From Candidatus Altimarinota bacterium (GTDB lineage Bacteria > Patescibacteriota > Gracilibacteria > 1-14-2-50-48-13), in assembly GCA_046314355.1 (NCBI GenBank), contig JBKBWQ010000001.1, forward strand, positions 640,001 to 704,000: 64,000 nucleotides of DNA. Reading direction: 5' to 3'. Each line of letters starts with the position of its first letter. The stretch's first letter is position 1. The notes beneath the pieces are model-generated. The model had not been told where the DNA came from, ran no database searches, and saw only the letters and a list, made by a program, of their open reading frames with translations. Positions 52,357 through 64,000 of the stretch are shown here, one piece after another. The position numbers and the translations under genes are program-made.

Positions 52357-52534
52357 TGTGGGAATAGTTATGAAATTAGCGAGTGAATTATAGTAAGTAT
52401 ACCGGAACTTTGTCATAAAAATAGCCTTTTCAATTACTAATTACTACTTACTCAATTACTGAGCCCTCACTTCCCCTTGCTTTTCCCCGGCTTTTTCGTA
52501 TTGTAGAATAGTTCTTTCACAGAATAGAAATTGT

Positions 52535-52611
52535 GCCCGCGTAGCTCAGCTGGATAGAGTACTTGGCTTCGAACCAAGGGGTCGTAGGTTCGAACCCTGC
52601 CGCGGGTACCA
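52535..52611 (+). tRNA. tRNA-Arg(UCG)
   Basis: GCCCGCG/CGCGGGT acceptor; loop CTTCGAA; encoded CCA. Confidence 0.95.
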
Positions 52612-52630
52612 GAATTTTCTTCGAAAATTC

Positions 52631-52714
52631 GAGTACTTAGTAGTGAGTACTTTGTAATTAGTACGCCCTTTTTATAATGAGCCACTAATTACTAACTACA
52701 AACTACTATCACTC
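52631..52714. repeat. Inverted heptamer repeats between the two tRNAs
   Basis: GAGTACT TAGTAGT GAGTACT TTGTAAT TAGT ... ACTAATT ACTAACT ACAAACT ACTATCACTC. Confidence 0.55.
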
Positions 52715-54425
52715 ACGCGAAGCGTATATGCACTCGTAGCTCAGCTGGATAGAGCGTTGGTTTGCGGAACCAAAGGTCGTAGGTTCGAACCCTGTCGAGT
52801 GCACCATATAGAAATTTTAAGGTACTCAACATAGTGTTAAGCTTGTTTGATGCAGGCTTTTTTGGTTCGACCACGCTAATACTCTTCTCTCCTTTAGGTT
52901 TGGCGAACCGAAACAGGATCTTTATTTTTAATTTTCCTTCTTCACTGTAGTAAGCCTCTATTCGTTCAACAAGGACAGAAATAATTGTACGTCTTTGCTC
53001 AAAGCTTAGATCATCTACTTTATCCTTAAAGTATAGAGCAAAGCCTTCAATCGCTTTGAAGGTCATTTCATGGTTAATGAGTCGCTCAAGTTCATCTAAT
53101 AGGGCTTGTTCACTTTTCATACAATCATTAATTGTTTTCTGATACTCAGCTTGCTTTCTATCCCTAAATTCTTCAGAAATACTTCCCTTATAGTAATCTT
53201 CCATAAGCCTCTCAAAAGATTTTTCAGCAATCTCCTTTTGTCTGACAACGTTCTCTATTTCACGCTGTTTACCTCGAACGTGGACTTTGGTGACAATTTG
53301 TTTTTTATAAATCGCAAAAAACTTTTTAGGGTTATTTATAGCCATCAGTACATGGTTCCACACAAAATTATCAATTACCTCTCCTGGTATCTCTAAATTG
53401 CTATACCTTAAACCATCCTCACGAATAAAAGCCTTATGACGATACGAATGCCCTCCTTTGGGTCTCATATATCCAATAAATTTCCTCTTTGATATTGGAT
53501 TATATATTTTTCTTGAAAGTAGGTACTCACGTTGTCCTCCTCCTTTATTACCACTAGTTTCTGTAATCTCATGAATAATCTCCTTAGCTTGGTCAAAAAC
53601 TACCTTCGTAATGATCTGTGGTGCCTTCTCTCTTACAACTCCATGATCCTTGAATGTGATCTCTCTATACCCCAAATAAATGCTATTTTTTAATATATCT
53701 TTAATAGATGTATCATACCATTGGGTATCCTTCACCTTAGAGCCTCGTTGATTAGACTTAGGGACATGTAGCTTATTCATTTCTATAGCAATTTCACCGT
53801 AGTTCTTGCGTTCAAGTATAAACCAAAAAAAGATCTGCTTTACCCATTTAGCTTCTTCAGGGATTACTTCAAGCTGTGAGCCTTTCTTATCTATATTTTT
53901 CACTTTTTTGTACCCATATGGTACAGCTGAACCCGTATAGTTACCAAGCCGAGCAGAGGCAATCTTCCCTTCCATCGTGCGAGTTTTTATTGTTTCTCTT
54001 TCAAACTCAGCCAAAGCACCAAAGATCTGGAATGTAAGCTTACCAATAGGACCAGTAAAATCTACATTCTCTTTGAGAGAATAGAAACTTACTCCATACT
54101 TCTGCATCTCTTCAAAAGCAAACAATAGATGTGAAAGATTACGGGACAAGCGGTCAATCTTCCATACAGCAACTAGGTCCACTTCTTTACGCTTCACACA
54201 CTCCATTAGTTCCTTGAATTTTGGACGGTTTAAATCTGCACCACTTAGCCCCTCATCAATAAATTCCCATTTCTTCTCATGGACCCAGTTATGTAATTTA
54301 CTGCGGTATTTTACTAGCTCATTTAGTCCATCAAGTTGCATAGCTAAGCCAAAGCCTTCTACTTGCTCTTCCGTAGAAACTCGGAGGTAAAAAGCTACTC
54401 GTACAGGTTTTTTGTCTTCTTCCAT
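52713..54425 (-). CDS. Large serine recombinase/integrase; ORF extends antisense through tRNA-Arg(GCG)
   Basis: YLRVSTEEQ, DEGLSGA, KIDRLSR, AEFERETI, VPYGY, coiled coil, RRTIISVLVERI. Confidence 0.92.
   Translation of the reverse strand: MEEDKKPVRVAFYLRVSTEEQVEGFGLAMQLDGLNELVKYRSKLHNWVHEKKWEFIDEGLSGADLNRPKFKELMECVKRKEVDLVAVWKIDRLSRNLSHLLFAFEEMQKYGVSFYSLKENVDFTGPIGKLTFQIFGALAEFERETIKTRTMEGKIASARLGNYTGSAVPYGYKKVKNIDKKGSQLEVIPEEAKWVKQIFFWFILERKNYGEIAIEMNKLHVPKSNQRGSKVKDTQWYDTSIKDILKNSIYLGYREITFKDHGVVREKAPQIITKVVFDQAKEIIHEITETSGNKGGGQREYLLSRKIYNPISKRKFIGYMRPKGGHSYRHKAFIREDGLRYSNLEIPGEVIDNFVWNHVLMAINNPKKFFAIYKKQIVTKVHVRGKQREIENVVRQKEIAEKSFERLMEDYYKGSISEEFRDRKQAEYQKTINDCMKSEQALLDELERLINHEMTFKAIEGFALYFKDKVDDLSFEQRRTIISVLVERIEAYYSEEGKLKIKILFRFAKPKGEKSISVVEPKKPASNKLNTMLSTLKFLYGALDRVRTYDLWFRKPTLYPAELRVHIRFA
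52730..52806 (+). tRNA. tRNA-Arg(GCG)
   Basis: GCACTCG/CGAGTGC acceptor; loop TTGCGGA; encoded CCA. Confidence 0.95.
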
Positions 54426-54452
54426 GCAGTAAAAAAAAAGAATGATACAGGT

Positions 54453-54481
54453 ATTGTATACATCTTTTTTCTTCCTCTCAA
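54453..54481 (-). promoter_or_regulatory. Sigma70-like promoter of the recombinase overlapped by an inverted repeat
   Basis: TTGAGA-17-TACAAT on the minus strand; AAAAGAATGATACA / TGTATACATCTTTT arms span the -10. Confidence 0.5.
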
Positions 54482-54504
54482 CGTTTCTCTTTAATCTTTC
54501 ATAC

Positions 54505-54705
54505 TTAACCTTGTGGAGCTCTTGTATCTTTTAAGATTACACGCAGTATAAATTCATCATCTTCTTCTCTCTTATCTTCAGGAATTTCATCATCAAAAAC
54601 AGCCTCTATTTCAATTATATGGGTCCTTCTCCCCATTGGAGGTATTACTAGAATAGAAGGATTATCCTGCTTATTCTGCGCTGTTTTAAGAGGTTTTTTC
54701 TTCAC
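54505..54705 (-). CDS. Small hypothetical protein upstream of the recombinase
   Basis: 66-aa ORF, co-oriented; basic N-terminus, acidic C-terminus. Confidence 0.45.
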   Translation of the reverse strand: MKKKPLKTAQNKQDNPSILVIPPMGRRTHIIEIEAVFDDEIPEDKREEDDEFILRVILKDTRAPQG

Positions 54706-54785
54706 AAAAAATCAAGATAGGATTTGTTGTAGTGATCCTACTGATTTAAATTATGACCTCGTGACATCAGAAACCAGAAGTAATG

Positions 54786-55496
54786 TCACAACCAACCAAT
54801 CCTTTGTTTTATCTCTTCTAATTTTCTATGAGAGATCTGACGTACATTTGCCGCCCTACGAGTGTCTGTTTGTTCATCCCCTTCAGGATAAACTTCTGCA
54901 ACAATATCCTTCGATGAATACTTATATTCTTCATCAAATGTTTTCACTTTCTTCCCTCTTTGCTGAGATTTTTCTAATATCATCTTATCTCTATTAGCAT
55001 TCTTTTTTGGTCTATGTACTATAGCTTTATTAGGCTCTGAGAAATTTCTAATAATCTCCATGAGTTCATTAGAAACTAACAATTCTTTCTGAGACGGTTT
55101 ACGGTATGTAGCAATTGAAAGTGTACTCGGTTGATTATTCTCATAATGACGAACAACCTCGGCATTAGCTACTGGAGCCGTAATTTCATTAAAAATCACA
55201 TAAGTTTCTATAGCTCTTCTGTAGCGCTTATCCACTTTAAGCTCATGACACCTTTGATGTAGTTTATTGATGTCTTCGCACCAATCTTCAATCTTCTCAT
55301 CTAAGTTTATATACCATTCAGTTTTTTGCTCACCACCTTTTACAGTGAAAGGAAAACCTTCTAAAGGTATATTATAGCATTTACGAAGCTCTGTGACATT
55401 TTCTTTAAATGCTGGAATCTGAACAAGCAATTCCATTAGGTTGAGATTTGCTTGGTAAACATTCTTATCAAAGTCTTCATTCTCAATCTGTTTCAT
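54786..55496 (-). CDS. Hypothetical protein, possibly DNA-binding
   Basis: Overlaps the OLD gene end by 14 nt; basic, HTH-like C-terminus (YSSKDIVAEVY...ANVRQISHR). Confidence 0.65.
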   Translation of the reverse strand: MKQIENEDFDKNVYQANLNLMELLVQIPAFKENVTELRKCYNIPLEGFPFTVKGGEQKTEWYINLDEKIEDWCEDINKLHQRCHELKVDKRYRRAIETYVIFNEITAPVANAEVVRHYENNQPSTLSIATYRKPSQKELLVSNELMEIIRNFSEPNKAIVHRPKKNANRDKMILEKSQQRGKKVKTFDEEYKYSSKDIVAEVYPEGDEQTDTRRAANVRQISHRKLEEIKQRIGWL

Positions 55497-57489
55497 GACT
55501 TCTAGTTAGATCTTGAATATCATTCCAATGGACAATTTGCATGTGCAATTTTTCAATCATGGAAATTAAGACTTGGTTATCTTTGAGGTCTTGTATAACC
55601 ATGTTTTTGGTAACTTTTAATGCAAACCTTTTCTTGGCCTTAGTATAACGATCTTGATATTTTTCATCTAGAGATTTCTCAAATGGTTGACCTCTTTTAT
55701 TCATTTCATAGGTATCAGGTACAATGTCATCTTTATATGCCCTGACCAAGCAATCTCTAGTTAAGTAATTCTCTATTTCAGTTCCATCTGTTATCCATCC
55801 AAATCCATGTCCCTTATTAGCTTCTGCCTCAATCTTAATTTTAGTTGACCACATATTATCTGTTTCACTATCTCTATCCATCAATACAACCGCATTTCTA
55901 TTTATATGTAACATACTTATAAAGTCTTGATTAGCTTCTTCTACTTCGTCTATCCAATCTTGATCCAAATCAAAATTTGAAAGTACTTTTCCACCGTAAA
56001 ATAGTATTGAAAAATCTCTACCCTCAACAACTTTTGTAATATTTTCATTTAATGCTTGAAAAAGGTTTAGCCACTTTAGAAGATATATTCTATCTGAAGG
56101 ACCTTCCACCCATATAATTCCATTTGACTGCAATAGATCAGAAGCAAATATACCCAGCTCCCTACAAAGGTCTGACATAGAATTACAGTCTCCATTATCA
56201 TTAAAAATATTTTCTACTCTGCTGAATGTTTCCTTTGCATCCATCGAAACCTTTATAATTTTCGTTGAAGTTCTTATTTTCAGTAATGGATCAATAAACG
56301 TATTTGAGTGAGTCGTAATGAAAAATTGGTATCCATACTTTTTACTTTGATCCATTAAAAACCTTATGAATGCTCTTTGTAGCTTTGGATGGAAGTGTGA
56401 TTCAGGTTCTTCAATTAAAATTAATGAATTCTCTGTCGATAGAATAATCTCGAGAGACATATAAATTAATTGTTCAAGACCAGCTCCAAGTTGCGAAAGC
56501 GGAAGTATCTTATCATCAAGACTTAGCTCAATAGCATACTGTGTACTCTCATTTATATCTGGAAATATGAGCTCTAGCCTATCTATTTGATTTTCAGGTA
56601 TGGAAGGAAAAAGTAGTTCTCTAAGCATTTGCTTAACTTGTAGGAATTTCTTTCGTTCGGCGATTCTACCGTCTCTAAGATTCATTAATCTCTGGACAAT
56701 TCTACCTTCTAAATCATCTTTTAATTCATTATGTCTCTTCTCAAATAAAAGAGGATATATTCCTCTTAATGGTTGAATGGTTGTCAAACGATTACTAGAG
56801 ATGCTACGCAAGACCCTTTTCAACACTATGCCTACATCACCAAACATAGACCTCGCCTTAACAGCTATACCTTCAGGTACGTGGCGACTAACAGGATCCA
56901 TTGCACTAATAATTCCTCTCGATTCATGTACGCTAATTACCAAATTTTCTTCTATATCAAACAACGTATACTCTCTACCATTCTCAGAATCAGGGATAGA
57001 TAATCCAATAAGTTCTGCCTGCAATTCCATTTGATGAATTTCCTTTATCTTAAATTTAAATTTTAAAGATTTTTCTTCTCTTTCTGATTCTTCCCATAAT
57101 GTGGGTATAATTTTTATTTGACGTTGCCCTGCATTAAAAAATGGTAGAATAGTTTTTATTTCATCAGCTTCTTCTTTTGTAAAAACCAAAGCAAAAGAAA
57201 TATATAATTCTTTTGGAATTTTCTGCATATAAAAAAGATCCTCAATTTTTCTTATAAAACTAAGCTTAGTCTTAATATCATCAATACCTATTACATGAGT
57301 AAAGTGTTCCCTATTATTCCATTCAGCAGAAAACAAGATATAATGAATGAATAGTAACGATTTTAAAACATTAGATTTACCTTCATTGTTTGGTCCTATA
57401 ATCAAATTATATTTATCAAAAGTGACATCTAAAGGGTGTTCTTCTGAAAAACTAAGCATATTACTAATATGTAGACTTTGTATTTTCAT
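55483..57489 (-). CDS. OLD-family ABC ATPase-TOPRIM nuclease
   Basis: IGPNNEGKSN, LGAGLEQ, LIEEPESHFHP, ITTHS; TOPRIM VEGPSD and DRD, EIENY. Confidence 0.88.
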   Translation of the reverse strand: MKIQSLHISNMLSFSEEHPLDVTFDKYNLIIGPNNEGKSNVLKSLLFIHYILFSAEWNNREHFTHVIGIDDIKTKLSFIRKIEDLFYMQKIPKELYISFALVFTKEEADEIKTILPFFNAGQRQIKIIPTLWEESEREEKSLKFKFKIKEIHQMELQAELIGLSIPDSENGREYTLFDIEENLVISVHESRGIISAMDPVSRHVPEGIAVKARSMFGDVGIVLKRVLRSISSNRLTTIQPLRGIYPLLFEKRHNELKDDLEGRIVQRLMNLRDGRIAERKKFLQVKQMLRELLFPSIPENQIDRLELIFPDINESTQYAIELSLDDKILPLSQLGAGLEQLIYMSLEIILSTENSLILIEEPESHFHPKLQRAFIRFLMDQSKKYGYQFFITTHSNTFIDPLLKIRTSTKIIKVSMDAKETFSRVENIFNDNGDCNSMSDLCRELGIFASDLLQSNGIIWVEGPSDRIYLLKWLNLFQALNENITKVVEGRDFSILFYGGKVLSNFDLDQDWIDEVEEANQDFISMLHINRNAVVLMDRDSETDNMWSTKIKIEAEANKGHGFGWITDGTEIENYLTRDCLVRAYKDDIVPDTYEMNKRGQPFEKSLDEKYQDRYTKAKKRFALKVTKNMVIQDLKDNQVLISMIEKLHMQIVHWNDIQDLTRSHETD

Positions 57490-57545
57490 GAATTATCTGT
57501 AGTTAATTTAAGAATACTATAAGCCATACTAGTGAAAATAAGGCT

Positions 57546-57577
57546 AAAAAAAAGACCTTGTTAGAACAAGGTCTTTT
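57546..57577 (-). terminator. Terminator after the SLH-DUF4352 gene
   Basis: AAAAGACCTTGTT-ag-AACAAGGTCTTTT. Confidence 0.8.
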
Positions 57578-57582
57578 AGACT

Positions 57583-58305
57583 TTATAAATTCACATAAAA
57601 CTGTCCAAGCTTCCCATAGTCTATTTCATACTTCAGATCTTTCAATGTCGCATCTATAGGAACCTCAAAAGCAACATATCCACGTGTCTCTCTTGTATTC
57701 TCAAGCTCTCCACTGCTTAGAAGAGGAGTTTTGTCTGTCACTGCCATCTGGTATGCGTAACTATCCTTGTCATAAAGGGTAAAGTTATAAGCATTATAGG
57801 AAATTGTTTTTCCACTATTATTACTGATCCGAACATCTGCAATAACATACTTCTTTCCTGCATCTGCTTTAAACAAAGATGATGAATAATCTGCCACACT
57901 ACTTACTGTAAGAGTGACGCCATTTAAAGTACCCGCAGAGTTGAGGCTGATTGTTTTAGATGTCTCAGTCGTATTTACATTTGTGTTTCCGTTAGAGGTA
58001 GTCGTAGTAGGATTTTTTAACATCGTATCTATCTGTGCCTTCGTATAGTAGTTTTTTGCTACGTACGCATTGTATCTATTCCACATTGCAGAAAGCTCCG
58101 CACGGTTTACGTTGTTTCCTGGTTTGAAGGTCCCATCGGGATTACCTCGTATAACGTCCCAATCTACCATTTTCTGGACATCGTTATAGAACCAGTCACT
58201 TGGACTGACATCGCTAAAACTCATTTGAGCTGCGAACGTTGCACCCACTCCGAAGAGAGAACCAACGAGAAATATTGCTGTGCCTACTGCCATTGTTTTT
58301 TTCAT
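57583..58305 (-). CDS. Secreted SLH + DUF4352-like protein (start MKKTM at 58305)
   Basis: Signal peptide; SLH FSDV..DWFY..GNPDGTFKP..VNRAE; V.ISNNS...F.LYD..GEL..TRGYVAFEVP. Confidence 0.8.
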   Translation of the reverse strand: MKKTMAVGTAIFLVGSLFGVGATFAAQMSFSDVSPSDWFYNDVQKMVDWDVIRGNPDGTFKPGNNVNRAELSAMWNRYNAYVAKNYYTKAQIDTMLKNPTTTTSNGNTNVNTTETSKTISLNSAGTLNGVTLTVSSVADYSSSLFKADAGKKYVIADVRISNNSGKTISYNAYNFTLYDKDSYAYQMAVTDKTPLLSSGELENTRETRGYVAFEVPIDATLKDLKYEIDYGKLGQFYVNL

Positions 58306-58330
58306 AGTTTTTGAAAAAAAGGGATAAAAA

Positions 58331-58463
58331 CAAAAAGGACGTACATGGCTGATCCAATACGCTTGCCCATAAGGTAGCCTTACTGGCATGTACGCCCACC
58401 TCTGGCAGTAAAGCCTTAGGAAAGAACGTTCCTTATGGAATTGGTAAACTATATTGGATCAGC
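58331..58463 (-). ncRNA. Candidate structured 5' leader RNA (multi-stem with pseudoknot or terminator switch)
   Basis: Four complementary helix pairs seen directly; predicted start point coincides with the first paired base. Confidence 0.6.
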
Positions 58464-58469
58464 ACGAAG

Positions 58470-58497
58470 ATAGTAGCAGAAACAGAATCTTTTGCAA
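58470..58497 (-). promoter_or_regulatory. Promoter for the leader RNA and SLH gene
   Basis: TTGCAA-16-TACTAT with extended TG. Confidence 0.55.
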
Positions 58498-58502
58498 TTA
58501 TA

Positions 58503-58552
58503 GTTTTCAACGTTGGAAACCCTCATTTCAGGGAGTTTCCAACGTTGAAAAC
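58503..58552. repeat. Perfect 18-bp inverted repeat with self-palindromic arms
   Basis: GTTTTCAACGTTGGAAAC (58503-58520) / GTTTCCAACGTTGAAAAC (58535-58552). Confidence 0.85.
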
Positions 58553-59025
58553 CCCTAAGTATTTTAGAAAATACAGACCTAAAATTGACATATTTGTAAA
58601 TTAACAGCTAATCTCACCAAAGTACTGATTTAGCTCAAGCAAATCCAACCACAGATGCTAAATTATTACACATTTACAATACATGTATTTTATTTTTTTA
58701 TTCTATCTATCATTTGCGGTATGTCTGCTTAAAAAAGAGATATTTATATTTCATAGCATAAACATATCTTCTCTTTTGTGAGAGCTAACTTTACCTATTT
58801 TTACATTCATATTTATAAATAAGAATAACCTTTATCTTTAAGTAAATCCAACCAAGTATTTATACTTTACAGTATACTTTTTCTCCTTTCTTATTACAAT
58901 TTCTATATAAATCCCATTTTAGAGATAATCTCAATTATAAAAAAGCTTTAGAAACTGTATTATTTTGACTTATTCATGACCTGAATCTTATAAAATAGCT
59001 TAAATCTCTACCACCTCACTTATAA

Positions 59026-60534
59026 ATGCCAAATACACCTAAAACACGAATTAATATATATTTCTCTGACTTTTTTAATATTGCTCCTAAAGTTATAGAG
59101 GACTTTGGAGCATTAAATATTTCGTTAGTCTCAGATTTACCTTTATTTATAGACCCCTTTCTTCTCTTCCACAGTACAAAAGAACCCTATAAAGAAATTC
59201 ATATTCAAATAATAAAGTATCTACATTTCTTACGAAAGACATCTACATCCGTTAGTATTGGAGACAAAGGAAGATTAAAAACTTTGTATAGTTTTTCAGA
59301 AGTAAAACAAACTTGGTTAGGATTTACCGAAAACAGCAATAAGGGTAAAGGTCTAGGACCAATCTTTGCATCCAAGTTAGACAATAATTTACGCAAAATT
59401 TTTAAACAGTTTGGGGAAGAAGAAGTAACTCAATCAAGTCATCTAGAAAAACTTTGCTTATTAGAGAAAGGTGTTGGAGCAGATTCAATAAGTGATTATA
59501 CGACAAATCTAATATGGGGCTTTCTTGCTGAATATACAGAAGAGTTTGCAAAAGCACATTTATCCGCTGCACAATGTAAATTAGTCACTATCCCAAGAGC
59601 TTTCTTTAATGAAGAAACTGAAATGTGGGTATCAAAGAACTACACATTGCCATATATAAATGGTGATTACGTCCTTTTGACTCCTATAGACATAGTAGCC
59701 AGAGAAAAAAATTGGATAAATAGAGACGATCTTATTAAAGATTTTGAAGCTATTCCTGAAATAATTACTAATGAAGAACTCAGATCTGGTATTAGTAATT
59801 ATTTTTGTAAAAAACTAGCAGAAAAGTCACCTAACTCTTCGCCTACGGCTGAAGATAAAGTATATGCTATTAACAGCACCTTCCATCAATTTCCAGAATT
59901 GATCGATTACTATATTCTCTTAAAAGAAATAACTGGCGACAAAGCTAGTAAGATTAATAAGGAGGAAATAAGCCATATGAGAGAAGCTGTTATTAAAAGA
60001 GCCAATGCATTAGTAGATCTTCTAAGCCATTGTACTAAATTCTATGACATAGAGGGAAATACGTATGAAGAGGCATTAAAACGTATCCAGTATTTAAAAC
60101 ATGTAATAGAGGATGAGGATGGCTATAGAATTTTTCATCAAAATGGCACTGTAAAGAAACGAGAATCTGATATTCATGCACTTTTCAAACTAACTTGGTG
60201 TGGAACTAAGTATGATGTAAATTCTGAGGTAAATAATGGACGTGGTCCTGTAGATTTTAAAGTCTCATTAGGAAGTACTGATAAGACTCTTGTAGAATTT
60301 AAGTTAGCTTCTAACCCTCAGCTAGAAAGGAATTTACGCAATCAGGTAGAAATATATAAAAAGGCTAATAAGACCAAAAAAGCCTTAAAAGTAATATTAT
60401 ACTTCACGAAAGGAGAGTTAATCAAAGTAGAAGGCATCTTAAAAAAATTAGGTAGAGAAAATGATCCAACCATTATACTTATTGATGCACGTAATGATAA
60501 TAAGCCTTCTGCTTCAAAAGCAACCACACATTAA
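59026..60534 (+). CDS. Putative PD-(D/E)XK nuclease-domain protein
   Basis: C-terminal EVNNGRGPVDF...LVEFKLAS; N-terminal DLPLFIDPFLL. Confidence 0.65.
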   Translation: MPNTPKTRINIYFSDFFNIAPKVIEDFGALNISLVSDLPLFIDPFLLFHSTKEPYKEIHIQIIKYLHFLRKTSTSVSIGDKGRLKTLYSFSEVKQTWLGFTENSNKGKGLGPIFASKLDNNLRKIFKQFGEEEVTQSSHLEKLCLLEKGVGADSISDYTTNLIWGFLAEYTEEFAKAHLSAAQCKLVTIPRAFFNEETEMWVSKNYTLPYINGDYVLLTPIDIVAREKNWINRDDLIKDFEAIPEIITNEELRSGISNYFCKKLAEKSPNSSPTAEDKVYAINSTFHQFPELIDYYILLKEITGDKASKINKEEISHMREAVIKRANALVDLLSHCTKFYDIEGNTYEEALKRIQYLKHVIEDEDGYRIFHQNGTVKKRESDIHALFKLTWCGTKYDVNSEVNNGRGPVDFKVSLGSTDKTLVEFKLASNPQLERNLRNQVEIYKKANKTKKALKVILYFTKGELIKVEGILKKLGRENDPTIILIDARNDNKPSASKATTH

Positions 60535-60551
60535 CATATTTTCAGATAACA

Positions 60552-61373
60552 ATGAAGAAAGAAAAAAGTACAGGTAAATATCAAAAACCGATAACAGGAC
60601 TTATGATTTTGGCATATATATTCTTTGCAAAAGAACTATTACCAACAATCAATGAGGGGTTTGATTTTGTTGCTAATATGACAAAGACATTCGGAGTTGA
60701 TAACTCAAAACAAGTTGTATTTGAACCAGATACATATATCCAAGAAGAACTTTTTGCCAATTTTAAGCCTGGTATGAATAGTCAACTGCTTACTGAGAAA
60801 TTTGGTTATCCAAAGTTAATAAATAATATTAATGACTCAAAGCGCTATTTACAGTGGGAAACTAAGAAATATAGTATGGGAACTATAATTGAAAAGGATA
60901 CAGGAAAAATAGAAATGCTAGCTATATATAGTCCTGAATGTAGAGGTACAGTAAAACTACCAAATACTGACATTCAAGGAGTACTTTGCCAAACAACATA
61001 CCCTATAAAGGAACTTTCAGACGTCACCATGCTTATACTTGGAGGTATGAAATATGGTGGTTATTTTGAAGCATATGCATCTGGAGCATGGAATAGTTTT
61101 CAAAGAGAGTATGTCGGCACAAGCTCAACGGGCACAGCTCCATATGTAGAAACAAGTAAATCAGCTAATCCAATTCTAAATTTTATTTATGATAATGATC
61201 TAGTTCACTTAAATCCAGAATCATTACATTTTAGTGAGTATATAAAAAATCCATCTTTTGTAAAAGCACGGACTGAGTCTAAATATAATTTTTACGCTAC
61301 TAGTAATTATAGCACTGAATTATCTGATCTTGAGACGGTATATACTACAATGGAACGTCCATATACATACTAA
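60552..61373 (+). CDS. Membrane-anchored hypothetical protein
   Basis: N-terminal TM; co-oriented with the nuclease gene. Confidence 0.65.
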   Translation: MKKEKSTGKYQKPITGLMILAYIFFAKELLPTINEGFDFVANMTKTFGVDNSKQVVFEPDTYIQEELFANFKPGMNSQLLTEKFGYPKLINNINDSKRYLQWETKKYSMGTIIEKDTGKIEMLAIYSPECRGTVKLPNTDIQGVLCQTTYPIKELSDVTMLILGGMKYGGYFEAYASGAWNSFQREYVGTSSTGTAPYVETSKSANPILNFIYDNDLVHLNPESLHFSEYIKNPSFVKARTESKYNFYATSNYSTELSDLETVYTTMERPYTY

Positions 61374-61384
61374 TCAGGATTATA

Positions 61385-61930
61385 TTAAAAACTATGGTTA
61401 TCTTCTTTGAGCAGTTCGTAATGTCTTAACGTAGATAGATACTTGGGAGATAAAGCAGATAAATAAGTCCTATTAAGTAATTCTTGAGGTATAGATAAAT
61501 ATCCTCTCAATTCTTTATATAGCGAGTCAATTTCATACAATTCATAAGAAGATTTTGTAGTTGAAGCATCAGCATTGTCATGATACCGGCTTTGGTAATG
61601 TGGGAAAAGCCTATCTAATAGATCATTGTGGACAGTAGAAATTTTGTATCTATTTTGTACACTCTCTAATTCATTTCGAAGCTTTGCAGGATTATGTTTG
61701 TCATTCCCTTTTAATGTAGTTTTTTGTTTGGTTTCTAAATAAAGCAGTGCCTTAATAATCTTTTCAATTGCCTGGCATGCTATTTCTAATCCTGGCTCAA
61801 TTAAACTATTGAGGATTAAGCATCTTGCAGCAAGATAGTCCATATCTGCATGAAATAGAAAAAGCATTGATTCAGCATATTCATTATGAAAATCTTTCGC
61901 CGTTTTAGAAAGCTCTGGAAGTTGAGGCAT
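61385..61930 (-). CDS. HEPN-domain protein
   Basis: ADMDYLAAR, CQAIEKIIKALL, HN, SRY pattern of HEPN helical bundles. Confidence 0.72.
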   Translation of the reverse strand: MPQLPELSKTAKDFHNEYAESMLFLFHADMDYLAARCLILNSLIEPGLEIACQAIEKIIKALLYLETKQKTTLKGNDKHNPAKLRNELESVQNRYKISTVHNDLLDRLFPHYQSRYHDNADASTTKSSYELYEIDSLYKELRGYLSIPQELLNRTYLSALSPKYLSTLRHYELLKEDNHSF

Positions 61931-62518
61931 TATATTCGAAGAATAAGTAATATCTAAACCTTAGCGACGAAAATTTTTGTTGTCCACCTATTCTTTGCCA
62001 ATATCTTCTCTACCTGAGCTAAGATAGGAATATACACATATTCCTCAGGCTTATTTTGAATGTAACCATAGCAGGCTTGTTCACCATACATTTTCTGGGA
62101 AAATTTGAGTAAGTAGTCTTAGATGCTTTGCAGAAGGCTTTTTTTGTATCAAGTACTGTTTATTATTTACAAAGTAATGAGCTCATAGGTTAACAAAAAT
62201 CAGACCTAGCCGCAGTGATTTTTCACGTTTTGACAGAAAAAACAGATACTCTACTTAGTCAAAGATATTATTATGAGTAAACCATCACTAGAAGTTCTTG
62301 TGATGGTTTTATACGAAATTTTTCTCGTTTTGTGTATTTTCGTGGATATAATTTCATACACTCTCGTTCAGATATTCTACTCCTATAATTGATTTGCACA
62401 CATTTGGAGCAAAAAAAGTATAAAAGTATTCTAGGACTAGACAAATCTATAGGTCATTGTAAAAAAACACCTGTTCATGCTATAATTTATAGAAGTTATA
62501 CCTCCTATCCCTCCAAAA

Positions 62519-64000
62519 ATGTTTTATACAAAAACAAAAAAGGTATCAACGCTGTTCCTGCTCTCTGCATTTATCTTTGGATTCATACTCAATTCAGAAT
62601 TAGTCTTTGCAGCCAATGTAGCGCCCGTTGCATCCGATGTTTCTATTACTGGCGGCACCAATGTCGGCGACCTTCTTACAGGTAACTACACTTTTAGTGA
62701 TGCTGATAACGATTGGACTGCACTAGGCGGTGCGGGAAATGCATATAATGGTGAAACATGGAGACCAAAAATGAAGGTTGACCAATCAGGAAACGTATAT
62801 TTTGCATTCGGTTCAGATATACCTAATGGTAATAAAGGTACAGTGACAAAATACGATCCTAATACACAAAGCTGGTCATTTGTAGGTACGCCGTATTTCA
62901 CACCTGGAGCTGCTCGTGATGTAGGGCTAGATATTGATTCAAATGGCACTCCTTATTTTGCATTTCAAGATGAAGCAAATTTTTATAGACCCTCAGTGAT
63001 GAAATTTAATGGTACGTCATGGGTATACGTAGGATTACCTGAAGTCTCTAATGTGCCTATAAATAGCCAGTTAAATCTTGTTTTGGATAGTAATGACTTA
63101 CCATATATCTCGTATGTAAATGATACTAATTTTAAACTTAAAGTATTGAGATTCAATGGCACCTCTTGGGTTGATGTTGGTCCTGCTGGTGAACCATCCA
63201 CTGATGCTGCCCGTGGTGGATCTCTTGCTCTTGATGGAAATAATGTACCTTATATTACTTACGCAATCGCGCCCTCTGCTGCGAATGGATATAATTATGG
63301 TAAAGTAATAGTAAAGAAGTTTAATGGTACCTCATGGATTGATGTTGGTCCTGCTGGTGGTGTTAGTGAAGAAACAGCAACTGATGTCACTATGGCTATT
63401 GACTCTAATAACGTACCTTATTTTGTTTATTCCAATACTACTGGAGGTAATAAGGCACTGAAATTCAATGGCAGCGTTTGGGAATATATTGGTTCAAATA
63501 GCGGTTCAGTCACACCAGTATTTGGAGCTAGTAGTCCATATCTAGCCCTCGATGATAATGATGTCCCATACGTAGCTCTTGAGGTTGTTGACTTTAATGA
63601 TGGAACCTACTCTAATTCAGTAAGAAAATTTAATGGTACTTCTTGGGAAACTGTAGGCAGCGATAGTTTTACCCCTGCCCGCGGATATATCCCGGTATTG
63701 GACTTTGATGCAGACCAAAATGTCTATATAGGATTTGAAGACTTTTATTTTTCAGATCCAGATAATGATGTTGTATCTTATGGTACCGTAACGAAATATG
63801 CTATAGTAGATGAGGAAGGAGCATCTACCTATCGATGGCTAAGAGATGGTACTCCTATATCTGGAGCGACCGCTTCGACATACACTATTGTTACTGCCGA
63901 CCGAGGTACCACACTTACCTTTGAGGTCACTCCAGTAGCTGCTACAGGCACTTCTCCAGGTACCGCTGCAACGAGTCCAGCGTACTTCATCCCCGATGAA
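62519..64000 (+). CDS. Secreted Ig-like + beta-propeller surface protein (3'-truncated, absent from ORF track)
   Basis: MFYTKTKKVSTLFLL..VFA signal; APVASDVSITG; repeated KFNGTSW..VG blades; frame open to the window end. Confidence 0.85.
   Translation, partial: MFYTKTKKVSTLFLLSAFIFGFILNSELVFAANVAPVASDVSITGGTNVGDLLTGNYTFSDADNDWTALGGAGNAYNGETWRPKMKVDQSGNVYFAFGSDIPNGNKGTVTKYDPNTQSWSFVGTPYFTPGAARDVGLDIDSNGTPYFAFQDEANFYRPSVMKFNGTSWVYVGLPEVSNVPINSQLNLVLDSNDLPYISYVNDTNFKLKVLRFNGTSWVDVGPAGEPSTDAARGGSLALDGNNVPYITYAIAPSAANGYNYGKVIVKKFNGTSWIDVGPAGGVSEETATDVTMAIDSNNVPYFVYSNTTGGNKALKFNGSVWEYIGSNSGSVTPVFGASSPYLALDDNDVPYVALEVVDFNDGTYSNSVRKFNGTSWETVGSDSFTPARGYIPVLDFDADQNVYIGFEDFYFSDPDNDVVSYGTVTKYAIVDEEGASTYRWLRDGTPISGATASTYTIVTADRGTTLTFEVTPVAATGTSPGTAATSPAYFIPDE

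Follow-up and report, generated by a model that had tools for sequence, protein, structure and literature searches.

A large serine recombinase gene that reads antisense through tRNA-Arg(GCG) in a Candidatus Altimarinota genome, and the probable placement of attP within the integrase 3' end in its clade

The window analysed here is the whole stretch of 64,000 nucleotides (nt) at C1:640001-704000 of a Candidatus Altimarinota bacterium genome of 1.69 Mb with 38% G+C. It contains a gene for a large serine recombinase (LSR), the putative integrase of a small integrative element, whose open reading frame (ORF) runs through a complete arginine tRNA gene on the opposite strand. The features at this junction, the last two of them predicted by analogy with islands in other genomes, are as follows.

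52713..54425, minus strand: LSR gene, 570 amino acids (aa); ORF list, Pfam, profile match, AlphaFold2 (AF2) model and Foldseek
52730..52806, plus strand: tRNA-Arg(GCG), 77 nt, putative host target gene (attL side); ARAGORN
52535..52611, plus strand: tRNA-Arg(TCG), upstream member of the host tandem, outside the element; ARAGORN, tandem kept in the genomes G002 and G001
52796..52806: putative element-supplied part of the tRNA (acceptor 3' strand, discriminator and CCA), the core of P'
52713..52795, minus strand: putative host-derived end of the integrase (approximately residues 545-570 and the TGA), antisense to tRNA positions 1-65 and to the 17-nt spacer

The LSR frame has no stop codon until the TGA at 52713-52715. 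It is antisense to all 77 nt of tRNA-Arg(GCG) and to 17 nt beyond it, a total overlap of 94 nt, and residues 541-570 with the stop codon are encoded by the opposite strand of the tRNA and this spacer. An earlier reading made from the letters and ORFs alone (the sequence-only reading) had described an integrase frame passing antisense through the entire tRNA, and this was borne out: the ORF at 52713..54425 takes in the tRNA at 52730-52806, and the C-terminal residues that it quoted match. The second arginine tRNA gene, tRNA-Arg(TCG), is located 195 nt upstream in tandem. A spurious 72-aa ORF (52467..52685, minus strand) lies antisense to it, which means that the antisense frame of an arginine tRNA can be open by itself. 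Because this neighbouring frame is open too, the open frame at the window locus is, taken alone, within chance, and the weight of the overlap comes from the family data and not from the single locus.

The ORF product is a large serine recombinase, as judged by sequence searches and structure prediction. The Pfam domains Resolvase (PF00239, E 5e-36) and Recombinase (PF07508, E 5.6e-14) matched residues 10-161 and 189-285, respectively. In an alignment of 26 family members, S17 within Y13-R15-V16-S17-T18 was invariant, and every family-invariant residue, S17 included, is present in the window LSR, which has no internal stops. The family profile matched the catalytic domain of TP901-1 (E 1e-44), the full-length SPbeta integrase up to approximately position 514, the C-terminal region of A118 (4kis; profile positions 150-512, E 1e-14), and also the Bxb1 and PhiC31 integrases. 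The best Foldseek matches of the AF2 model were the SPbeta, Bxb1 and PhiC31 integrases, all of them full-length integrase/att complexes. The model includes a helix at residues 126-159 followed by a helical domain, corresponding to the recombinase domain after the long E-helix, beta strands at 307-347, and helices at 383-412 and 418-466 in the position of the coiled coil of the C-terminal domain. No Pfam match to the zinc-ribbon domain (PF13408), whose usual form has four cysteine ligands, was found in the LSR, and only two cysteines were read in its translation; the zinc-ribbon position is probably filled by a cysteine-less version of the domain. The folded body of the model reaches approximately residue 505, and the predicted local distance difference test score (pLDDT) of 27-33 over residues 508-570 predicts disorder. 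None of the solved LSR structures aligned past approximately profile position 514.

A search for homologous integrases in 401 genomes of the same class (E <= 1e-30) gave 67 places in 52 genomes, and 66 loci were examined. The ORF overlapped the 3' end of a tRNA gene in antisense in 47 of the 66 homolog loci and a transfer-messenger RNA (tmRNA) gene in a further four, that is, in 51/66. The expectation that homologous integrases have 3' ends running into tRNA genes was thus confirmed, and no overlapping homolog stops short of the tRNA, the smallest overlap being 10 nt. The phase is identical in 49 of the 51 overlaps, where the complement of the CCA is read as xxT GGN, and this fixed phase explains why G541 is invariant in the family alignment. 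The targets of the overlapping loci include 22 tRNA species and tmRNA (23 in total), with overlap lengths of 10, 13, 16, 22 (21 loci), 42, 52, 58, 64, 70, 76, 94 (the window), 103 and 130 nt.

The end of the frame follows the T-loop sequence. All 21 loci with a 22-nt overlap carry the T-loop TTCAA, in which T55-C56-A57 supplies the stop codon as an antisense TGA. Each of the 14 standard-code loci whose overlap is longer carries T[TC]CGA, which is read as arginine, and therefore translation goes on past the T-loop, as at the window locus (TTCGAAC). In genomes of the class that have recoded TGA, the T-loop TGA is no stop and the overlaps are 42-103 nt (L032-L044, L058, L059 and others); these ORFs contain many in-frame TGA codons.

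In protein databases, the homologs are named as Patescibacteria and Peregrinibacteria, and in some of their genomes TGA is a sense codon. The nearest relative in the database, P0002 (60% identity), likewise has an antisense tRNA-Arg-like tail, and a strict tail signature was present in approximately 48 of the best 120 database homologs, together with many more TGA-recoded or other-frame versions. In other classes of the phylum, matches were found in 6 further genomes of the 401 searched, and five of these six have tRNA-derived tails. Scans of viral and metagenome contigs, which recovered mostly generic LSRs, were taken as controls. None of 80 generic LSRs from IMG/VR viral contigs overlapped a tRNA, and the overlap was found at three of 80 metagenome loci: two close relatives (L243 and L244) and one distant LSR. 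Among the metagenome loci with a match across most of the query, L243 and L244 have the overlap and L245 has none, while outside the close family 1 of approximately 55 full-length generic ORFs on metagenome contigs overlaps and 54 do not. A genome-contig search with a single protein query gave one unrelated partial match. The distant LSR, a 457-aa protein encoded on a 12.8-kb metagenome contig (L306) with an identity of 33% in its N-terminal 250 aa, keeps the frame of the family and extends 22 nt into tRNA-Ala(tgc), and the overlap design may exist beyond the clade.

These data bear on whether the window overlap is an accident, in which an unrelated recombinase gene came to extend into an adjacent tRNA gene through a local stop loss or an assembly error. 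Antisense tRNA frames are often open, as the ORF opposite tRNA-Arg(TCG) illustrates, and this much favours an accident. Against it, 51 of 66 homologs have the same arrangement, 49 of them in one frame and over 23 targets. Moreover, when Logan contigs of three sequencing runs were compared with 19.9 kb of the locus, one 26.5-kb contig of the likely source run spanned the junction with no differing letters. An accidental origin is regarded as exceedingly improbable.

The status of tRNA-Arg(GCG) as a host gene was examined in the genome and in its relatives. It is the sole reader of CGY codons among the 37 tRNAs on the main contig, and no other arginine tRNA has the anticodon GCG or ACG. The tandem of tRNA-Arg(tcg) and tRNA-Arg(gcg) is also found in G002 and G001, which belong to the same family, and the integrase query matched these genomes only in the tRNA antisense. 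The genes downstream of their tandem correspond to C1:711417 onward, past the end of the window. The comparison with related genomes lacking the island that the sequence-only reading had proposed is thus provided by G002 and G001, which have the tRNA-Arg pair and, by this query, no integrase, although they are not of the same species. Since tRNA genes are often carried by mobile elements and phages, tRNA-Arg(GCG) might be regarded as cargo of the element and not as its target. Its role as the only CGY reader, the conservation of the tandem in relatives without the integrase, and the finding that homologous islands repeat only the terminal 11-19 nt of the tRNA at their other end all argue against this, and a cargo tRNA is considered very unlikely.

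The far ends of the islands were searched for displaced pieces of the target gene. Of 20 islands searched with blastn over flanks of at most 20 kb, seven contained a terminal tRNA piece in the same orientation. An exact match to the last 11 nt of the tRNA was found in seven of 52 loci, over all the available sequence, against a chance expectation of approximately 0.3 hits in total (our own estimate, from 4^11 possible 11-mers and approximately 25 kb per locus); in three loci the exact search picked a neighbouring tRNA and not the overlapped one. Junctions were aligned for six islands.

G302, tRNA-Ile: 6 kb
G048, tRNA-Leu: 9.7 kb
G033, tRNA-Ile, three tandem remnants: approximately 10 kb
G388, tRNA-Thr: 12.9 kb
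G369, tmRNA, three remnants: 16-16.6 kb
G196, tmRNA: 18.5 kb

The far-end repeats in these six islands are 11-19 nt long and always end at or just past the CCA. The shortest, of 11 nt, consists of the acceptor 3' strand, the discriminator and the CCA (G048, G302 and two of the three G369 remnants). In G302, the bases directly before the repeat cannot pair with the T-stem of the tRNA, indicating that they are element sequence and not decayed tRNA; up to the repeat, G302 and G345 resemble each other in their inner flanks. Weaker far-end cases were found in G345 and G272. Since six islands repeat the final 11-19 nt of the target gene at their far end, attP appears to lie inside the integrase 3' end across the family, a placement supported by sequence comparison, and strand exchange would occur at or near the boundary between the T-stem and the acceptor stem. 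Together with the family overlaps, the island-end repeats uphold the proposal in the sequence-only reading of a serine-integrase element at a tRNA gene with its att site within the integrase 3' end.

Some loci carry further pieces of the target. Three tRNA-Ile 3'-end remnants spaced 173 nt apart lie in tandem on the far side of L105 (G033:C6, approximately 104.7-105.1 kb), and three tmRNA 3'-end remnants spaced 127 and 408 nt apart lie on the far side of L128 (G369:C10, approximately 7.9-8.5 kb). Both tandems fit repeated insertion at one site. At L038 (G218:C1, approximately 352.07-352.19 kb), a gap of 112 nt separates the end of the integrase from tRNA-Arg(gcg), and this gap contains an additional copy of the last 11 nt of the tRNA, which suggests that a remnant parts the integrase gene from the intact tRNA. 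Two loci of G349:C1, a contig of 697 kb, lie near its opposite ends and face apart, one at tRNA-Met and one at tmRNA (L073 and L079); if this contig is circular, they would be back-to-back islands within approximately 14 kb.

Taken together, the ORF is probably the integrase of a small integrative element and belongs to an LSR clade of Patescibacteria, mostly Gracilibacteria/Peregrinibacteria, that attaches at the 3' ends of tRNA and tmRNA genes and keeps attP in the end of its own gene. In the proposed mechanism, attP would be located within the 3' end of the integrase gene, where, just past the disordered C-terminal linker, the element would carry the last ~11 nt of the tRNA (acceptor 3' strand, discriminator and CCA), and these nucleotides would make the tRNA whole again once the element has inserted. 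An exchange of strands where the T-stem meets the acceptor stem, or close to it, would leave the integrase frame running in a constant register (xxT GGN ...) into the antisense of the host half of the tRNA, to end at the first stop met. With the T-loop TTCAA this would be the antisense TGA, 22 nt in; with TTCGA, as in the window, the frame would cross the whole of tRNA-Arg(GCG) and end 17 nt beyond it. The integrated gene would then be a chimera in which approximately residues 545-570 and the stop codon are host-encoded. We infer that the clade is mobile and that the window copy arrived by the same route.

Several observations weigh against this explanation. In the available sequence, no far-end repeat was found in 13 of the 20 islands searched with blastn or in 45 of the 52 loci searched with the exact 11-mer, and the position of the crossover rests on the repeat lengths. 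The att sites of serine integrases are short (approximately 40-50 bp), have a 2-bp crossover and need no host factors, and a symmetry signal is expected of them. In a symmetry scan of rebuilt attP/attB sites, four cases had their best centres 8-11 nt short of the tRNA end, and the scores of the rebuilt attP sites were weak (11-15 of 22-29 positions), barely exceeding the expectation from many trials. Fifteen of the 66 loci have no overlap: six have no tRNA, five have a tRNA or tmRNA downstream and four are at contig ends. In the five loci with a downstream antisense tRNA or tmRNA, the distance is 112-941 nt; three of their ORFs are of 460 aa or less, and one contains N. An Rfam scan of seven tRNA-less loci yielded a single tmRNA, located 713 nt downstream in L049, and nothing else. 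Since the homologs have common ancestry, locus counts overstate the independent support, and G002 and G001, being of different genera, are not strict empty-site alleles. At the window locus, mismatch-tolerant scans with the tRNA 3' ends of the window genome, G002 and G001 found no displaced tRNA fragment of at least 9 nt in the 47 kb downstream; matches to 6-8-nt motifs were all inside genes and gave no credible far-end remnant, as was also the case for a direct-repeat search of 52400-64000 and a whole-genome blastn-short search of the tRNA region.

The region downstream of the junction was inspected for the content and extent of the island. The following features were found.

54505..54705, minus strand: 66-aa ORF directly upstream of the integrase; no match in Pfam or PADLOC
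54786..55496, minus strand: 236-aa ORF with no family match (Pfam, PADLOC) and a 14-nt overlap with the ATPase gene
55483..57489, minus strand: 668-aa OLD/GajA/AriA-like ABC-type ATPase; Pfam AAA_15 and AAA_21, PADLOC
57583-58389: host-like SLH gene with many genomic paralogues, interrupting the low-G+C stretch
59026-60534, plus strand: PDC-M36A-like protein with a weak PD-(D/E)XK match (PADLOC/domain search); island membership uncertain
52796..62500: candidate extent of the island by composition and synteny, the right end undefined

The G+C content is low (0.29-0.35) from approximately 54500 to 62500, except for the SLH gene, and synteny with G002 and G001 returns only at C1:711417, outside the window. 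The 668-aa ATPase matched the NsnB, AriA, GajA and Old models of PADLOC (E 1e-19 to 1e-24) and, on these sequence matches, would likely be anti-phage defence cargo. Beyond the SLH gene, the PDC-M36A-like gene is accompanied by two genes of no recognised family, and no complete known defence system was recognised in the island region of the window. To regard the 66-aa ORF as a recombination directionality factor (RDF) is only a guess: no relatives of it were found beside other family integrases, and no genes near the integrase common to other family islands, nor any RDF candidate, were detected.

The window copy could be a decayed and immobile remnant, in which the left junction was kept, the right end was lost or overwritten, and the chimeric ORF was frozen. 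The missing far-end repeat, the mosaic composition downstream, with a host-like SLH gene inside the low-G+C stretch, and the lack of cargo genes common to other family islands all point in this direction. On the other hand, the integrase is full length, keeps all the family-invariant residues and has no internal stop, and the scans would overlook a far-end repeat that has mutated or has fewer than 9 nt. Decay of the window copy is therefore a serious possibility, judged slightly less probable than an element that remains complete. One DNA sequencing run, a possible source sample, is listed as containing the stretch, and no RNA run is. In the Logan contigs of the three runs, no empty-site or circular joint was found at the tRNA, and such contigs drop rare variants; those of the likely source run contain the integrated form only, which is compatible with rare excision.

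Under the explanation favoured here, an integrase gene that crosses its own attachment site would exchange its C-terminal tail upon integration. By analogy with the homolog islands, the crossover in the window would lie at or near 52795/52796, and the element-derived part of the integrase would end within the codon of D544, leaving residues 545-570 and the stop codon host-encoded. Because of this predicted crossover, only four of the overlap codons would be owned by the element and the rest, usually with the stop, would be host DNA. When the ends of six homolog islands were rejoined in silico, the tail was altered in all six: in five it changed from 7 residues in the integrated form to 11-59 residues in the excised form, and in G388 the length was unchanged at 23 residues but the sequence was different. 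These rejoined islands support, in the homologs, the earlier statement that integration changes the integrase tail. In the integrated forms, where the overlaps measure 10-130 nt, the tails comprise 3-43 residues past the xxT codon and have no common sequence beyond that dictated by the tRNA; the rebuilt excised tails are likewise mutually unrelated. One further locus on a 20.1-kb contig (G263:C24, L229/L230) encodes an integrase that is 91% identical to one at tRNA-Met, with an ORF approximately 50 aa longer. It contains only a 16-nt piece resembling a tRNA 3' end and no tRNA; a terminal repeat was not found, nor was a tRNA matching the 16-nt piece with up to 2 mismatches in that genome. This contig may represent a free attP or unintegrated element, a site of another kind, or a misbinned contig.

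The sequence-only reading had gone further and suggested that the changed tail acts as a directionality switch, which is not supported: the tail is unconserved, its length varies greatly, and its pLDDT is 27-33 from residue 508. In a functional version of the tail exchange, the host- or element-encoded tail would alter integrase activity and so switch directionality or maintenance, perhaps aided by convergent transcription of the tRNA. The exchange itself is real in the rejoined homologs, the standard-code integrated forms mostly end at one place (the T-loop TGA, 21/51), and members without a tRNA at their end have ORFs 40-70 aa longer. There is also a described parallel in Mx8 IntP, which is inactive after replacement of its tail, and the same was proposed for the serine integrases of streptococcal integrative and conjugative elements (ICEs) at rumA, as far as these are described in PMC4701971. 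Nevertheless, apart from the variable integrated tails and the unrelated excised ones, the segment 508-570 is predicted to be disordered and lies past the last position aligned to solved LSRs, and genomes that read TGA as sense simply have a longer integrated tail, with overlaps of 58-103 nt, which argues against a tuned length. A regulatory tail is thus considered improbable. Because the tail is predicted to be disordered and its sequences are common only where tRNAs dictate them, the exchange is most likely a side effect of attP being housed in the end of the gene, and the tail a tolerated unstructured appendage and no regulatory device.

The relationship between integrase and target was compared among close homologs. 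Pairs of integrases located at tRNA-Phe and tRNA-Met were 94% (L025/L045), 89% (L050/L061) and 86% (L015/L040) identical, and L050 and L061 are found in one genome, G096. The acceptor ends of tRNA-Phe and tRNA-Met are alike. Among pairs with at least 80% identity, four have the same target and three have different targets. It is conceivable, although we hold it to be rather unlikely, that the clade represents a naturally retargetable serine integrase, in which the enzyme reads features common to tRNAs (T-arm, acceptor end and CCA), the 11-nt P' mimic mainly sets the target, and the inserted integrase is damped by the host-derived tail and stop codon and by head-on transcription of the tRNA. 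If so, swapping the 11-nt mimic would shift a nearly unchanged enzyme (94%) from tRNA-Phe to tRNA-Met. Such LSRs, with universally conserved targets and a target shift achieved by few protein changes, would be relevant to integrase engineering.

Insertion at tRNA genes is generally seen as the preserve of tyrosine integrases. The design of islands at tRNA and tmRNA genes is classic for these enzymes in the parts of PMC4383910 and PMC12424338 that treat it. Tyrosine-integrase islands (the sublocation classes of Williams 2002; Islander/TIGER) share with the clade described here the 3' target in tRNA or tmRNA, the restoring copy, the displaced fragment, the location of the integrase beside the tRNA, and tandem remnants. 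In contrast, the clade uses a serine recombinase, its shortest repeat is 11 nt ending at the CCA, and the integrase ORF itself crosses the junction.

Integration of serine recombinases into tRNA genes is called rare in the relevant part of PMC3218068, where eight mycobacterial actinomycete ICEs (AICEs) at tRNA-Leu and the small resolvase-like recombinase of the Ralstonia phage phiRSM at tRNA-Ser are described. Like the clade, these insert into a tRNA gene by means of a serine recombinase. As they are described there, they have single targets in single lineages, whereas the targets of the clade extend to 22 tRNA species and tmRNA, enzymes that are almost identical are found at different tRNAs, and the putative att site is inside the integrase ORF.

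The streptococcal rumA ICEs have a single serine integrase with the att site inside its gene and an exchanged C-terminus (PMC4701971, in the portion on these elements), and exchange of the C-terminus thus has a precedent among serine integrases. In both the rumA ICEs and the Myxococcus phage Mx8 (IntP, a tyrosine integrase), according to the same description, integration changes the length and sequence of the C-terminus, as it would in the clade. The partner of the rumA ICEs, as described, is a protein-coding gene and both proteins change, whereas that of the clade is an RNA gene read in antisense, with a frame relative to the target that is fixed family-wide and a stop that is often a conserved T-loop triplet. 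The canonical phage LSRs (PhiC31, Bxb1, A118/LI, TP901-1 and SPbeta SprA) have the same domain order as the window LSR: a catalytic domain, a recombinase domain, a beta-rich domain at the zinc-ribbon position and a long coiled coil. Unlike them, the window LSR has no Pfam zinc ribbon, only two cysteines, RNA-gene targets, a putative attP overlapping the end of its own gene, and an extra disordered tail of approximately 60 aa.

Each part has its own precedent: serine recombinases are known, though rarely, to integrate at tRNA genes, and serine integrase genes of streptococci are known to contain att sites. In the literature searched, supplements aside, no report was found of an LSR clade at tRNA or tmRNA genes in Patescibacteria, of the fixed frame or of the T-loop stop. 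On this reading, a whole LSR clade in reduced-genome Patescibacteria has come to occupy no fewer than 22 tRNA species as well as tmRNA, and its arrangement is compact, the coding end of the integrase doubling as half of attP. Gene models could be corrected accordingly, as the tRNA-derived tails and the invariant G541 stem from the CCA end and are not protein features. The overlap could also serve as a simple marker for such islands, many with defence-like cargo, in genomes whose mobile elements are poorly known.

Other signals at the locus are minor. A terminator-like hairpin with a T run (52839-52859, plus strand) is located 33 nt past the 3' end of tRNA-Arg(GCG), inside the region that encodes the disordered linker of the integrase. 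The scan found three terminator-like sites against 1.9 expected, a weak signal, and the element may perhaps provide a terminator for the tRNA operon. One promoter-like site was found upstream of the integrase.

54453..54481, minus strand: promoter-like site, 28 nt upstream of the integrase start codon, 10/12 consensus matches

Promoter-like sites were no commoner than in shuffled sequences, and this site is weak. From the geometry of the locus, transcription of the integrase would yield antisense tRNA, as the sequence-only reading had also noted. Past the candidate island, a 2168-aa surface protein (62519-64000, plus strand, continuing to C1:709026) has repeated Ig-like domains and C-terminal SLH domains, with internal repeats of 140-170 nt in its coding region; SLH-domain genes are numerous in this genome.

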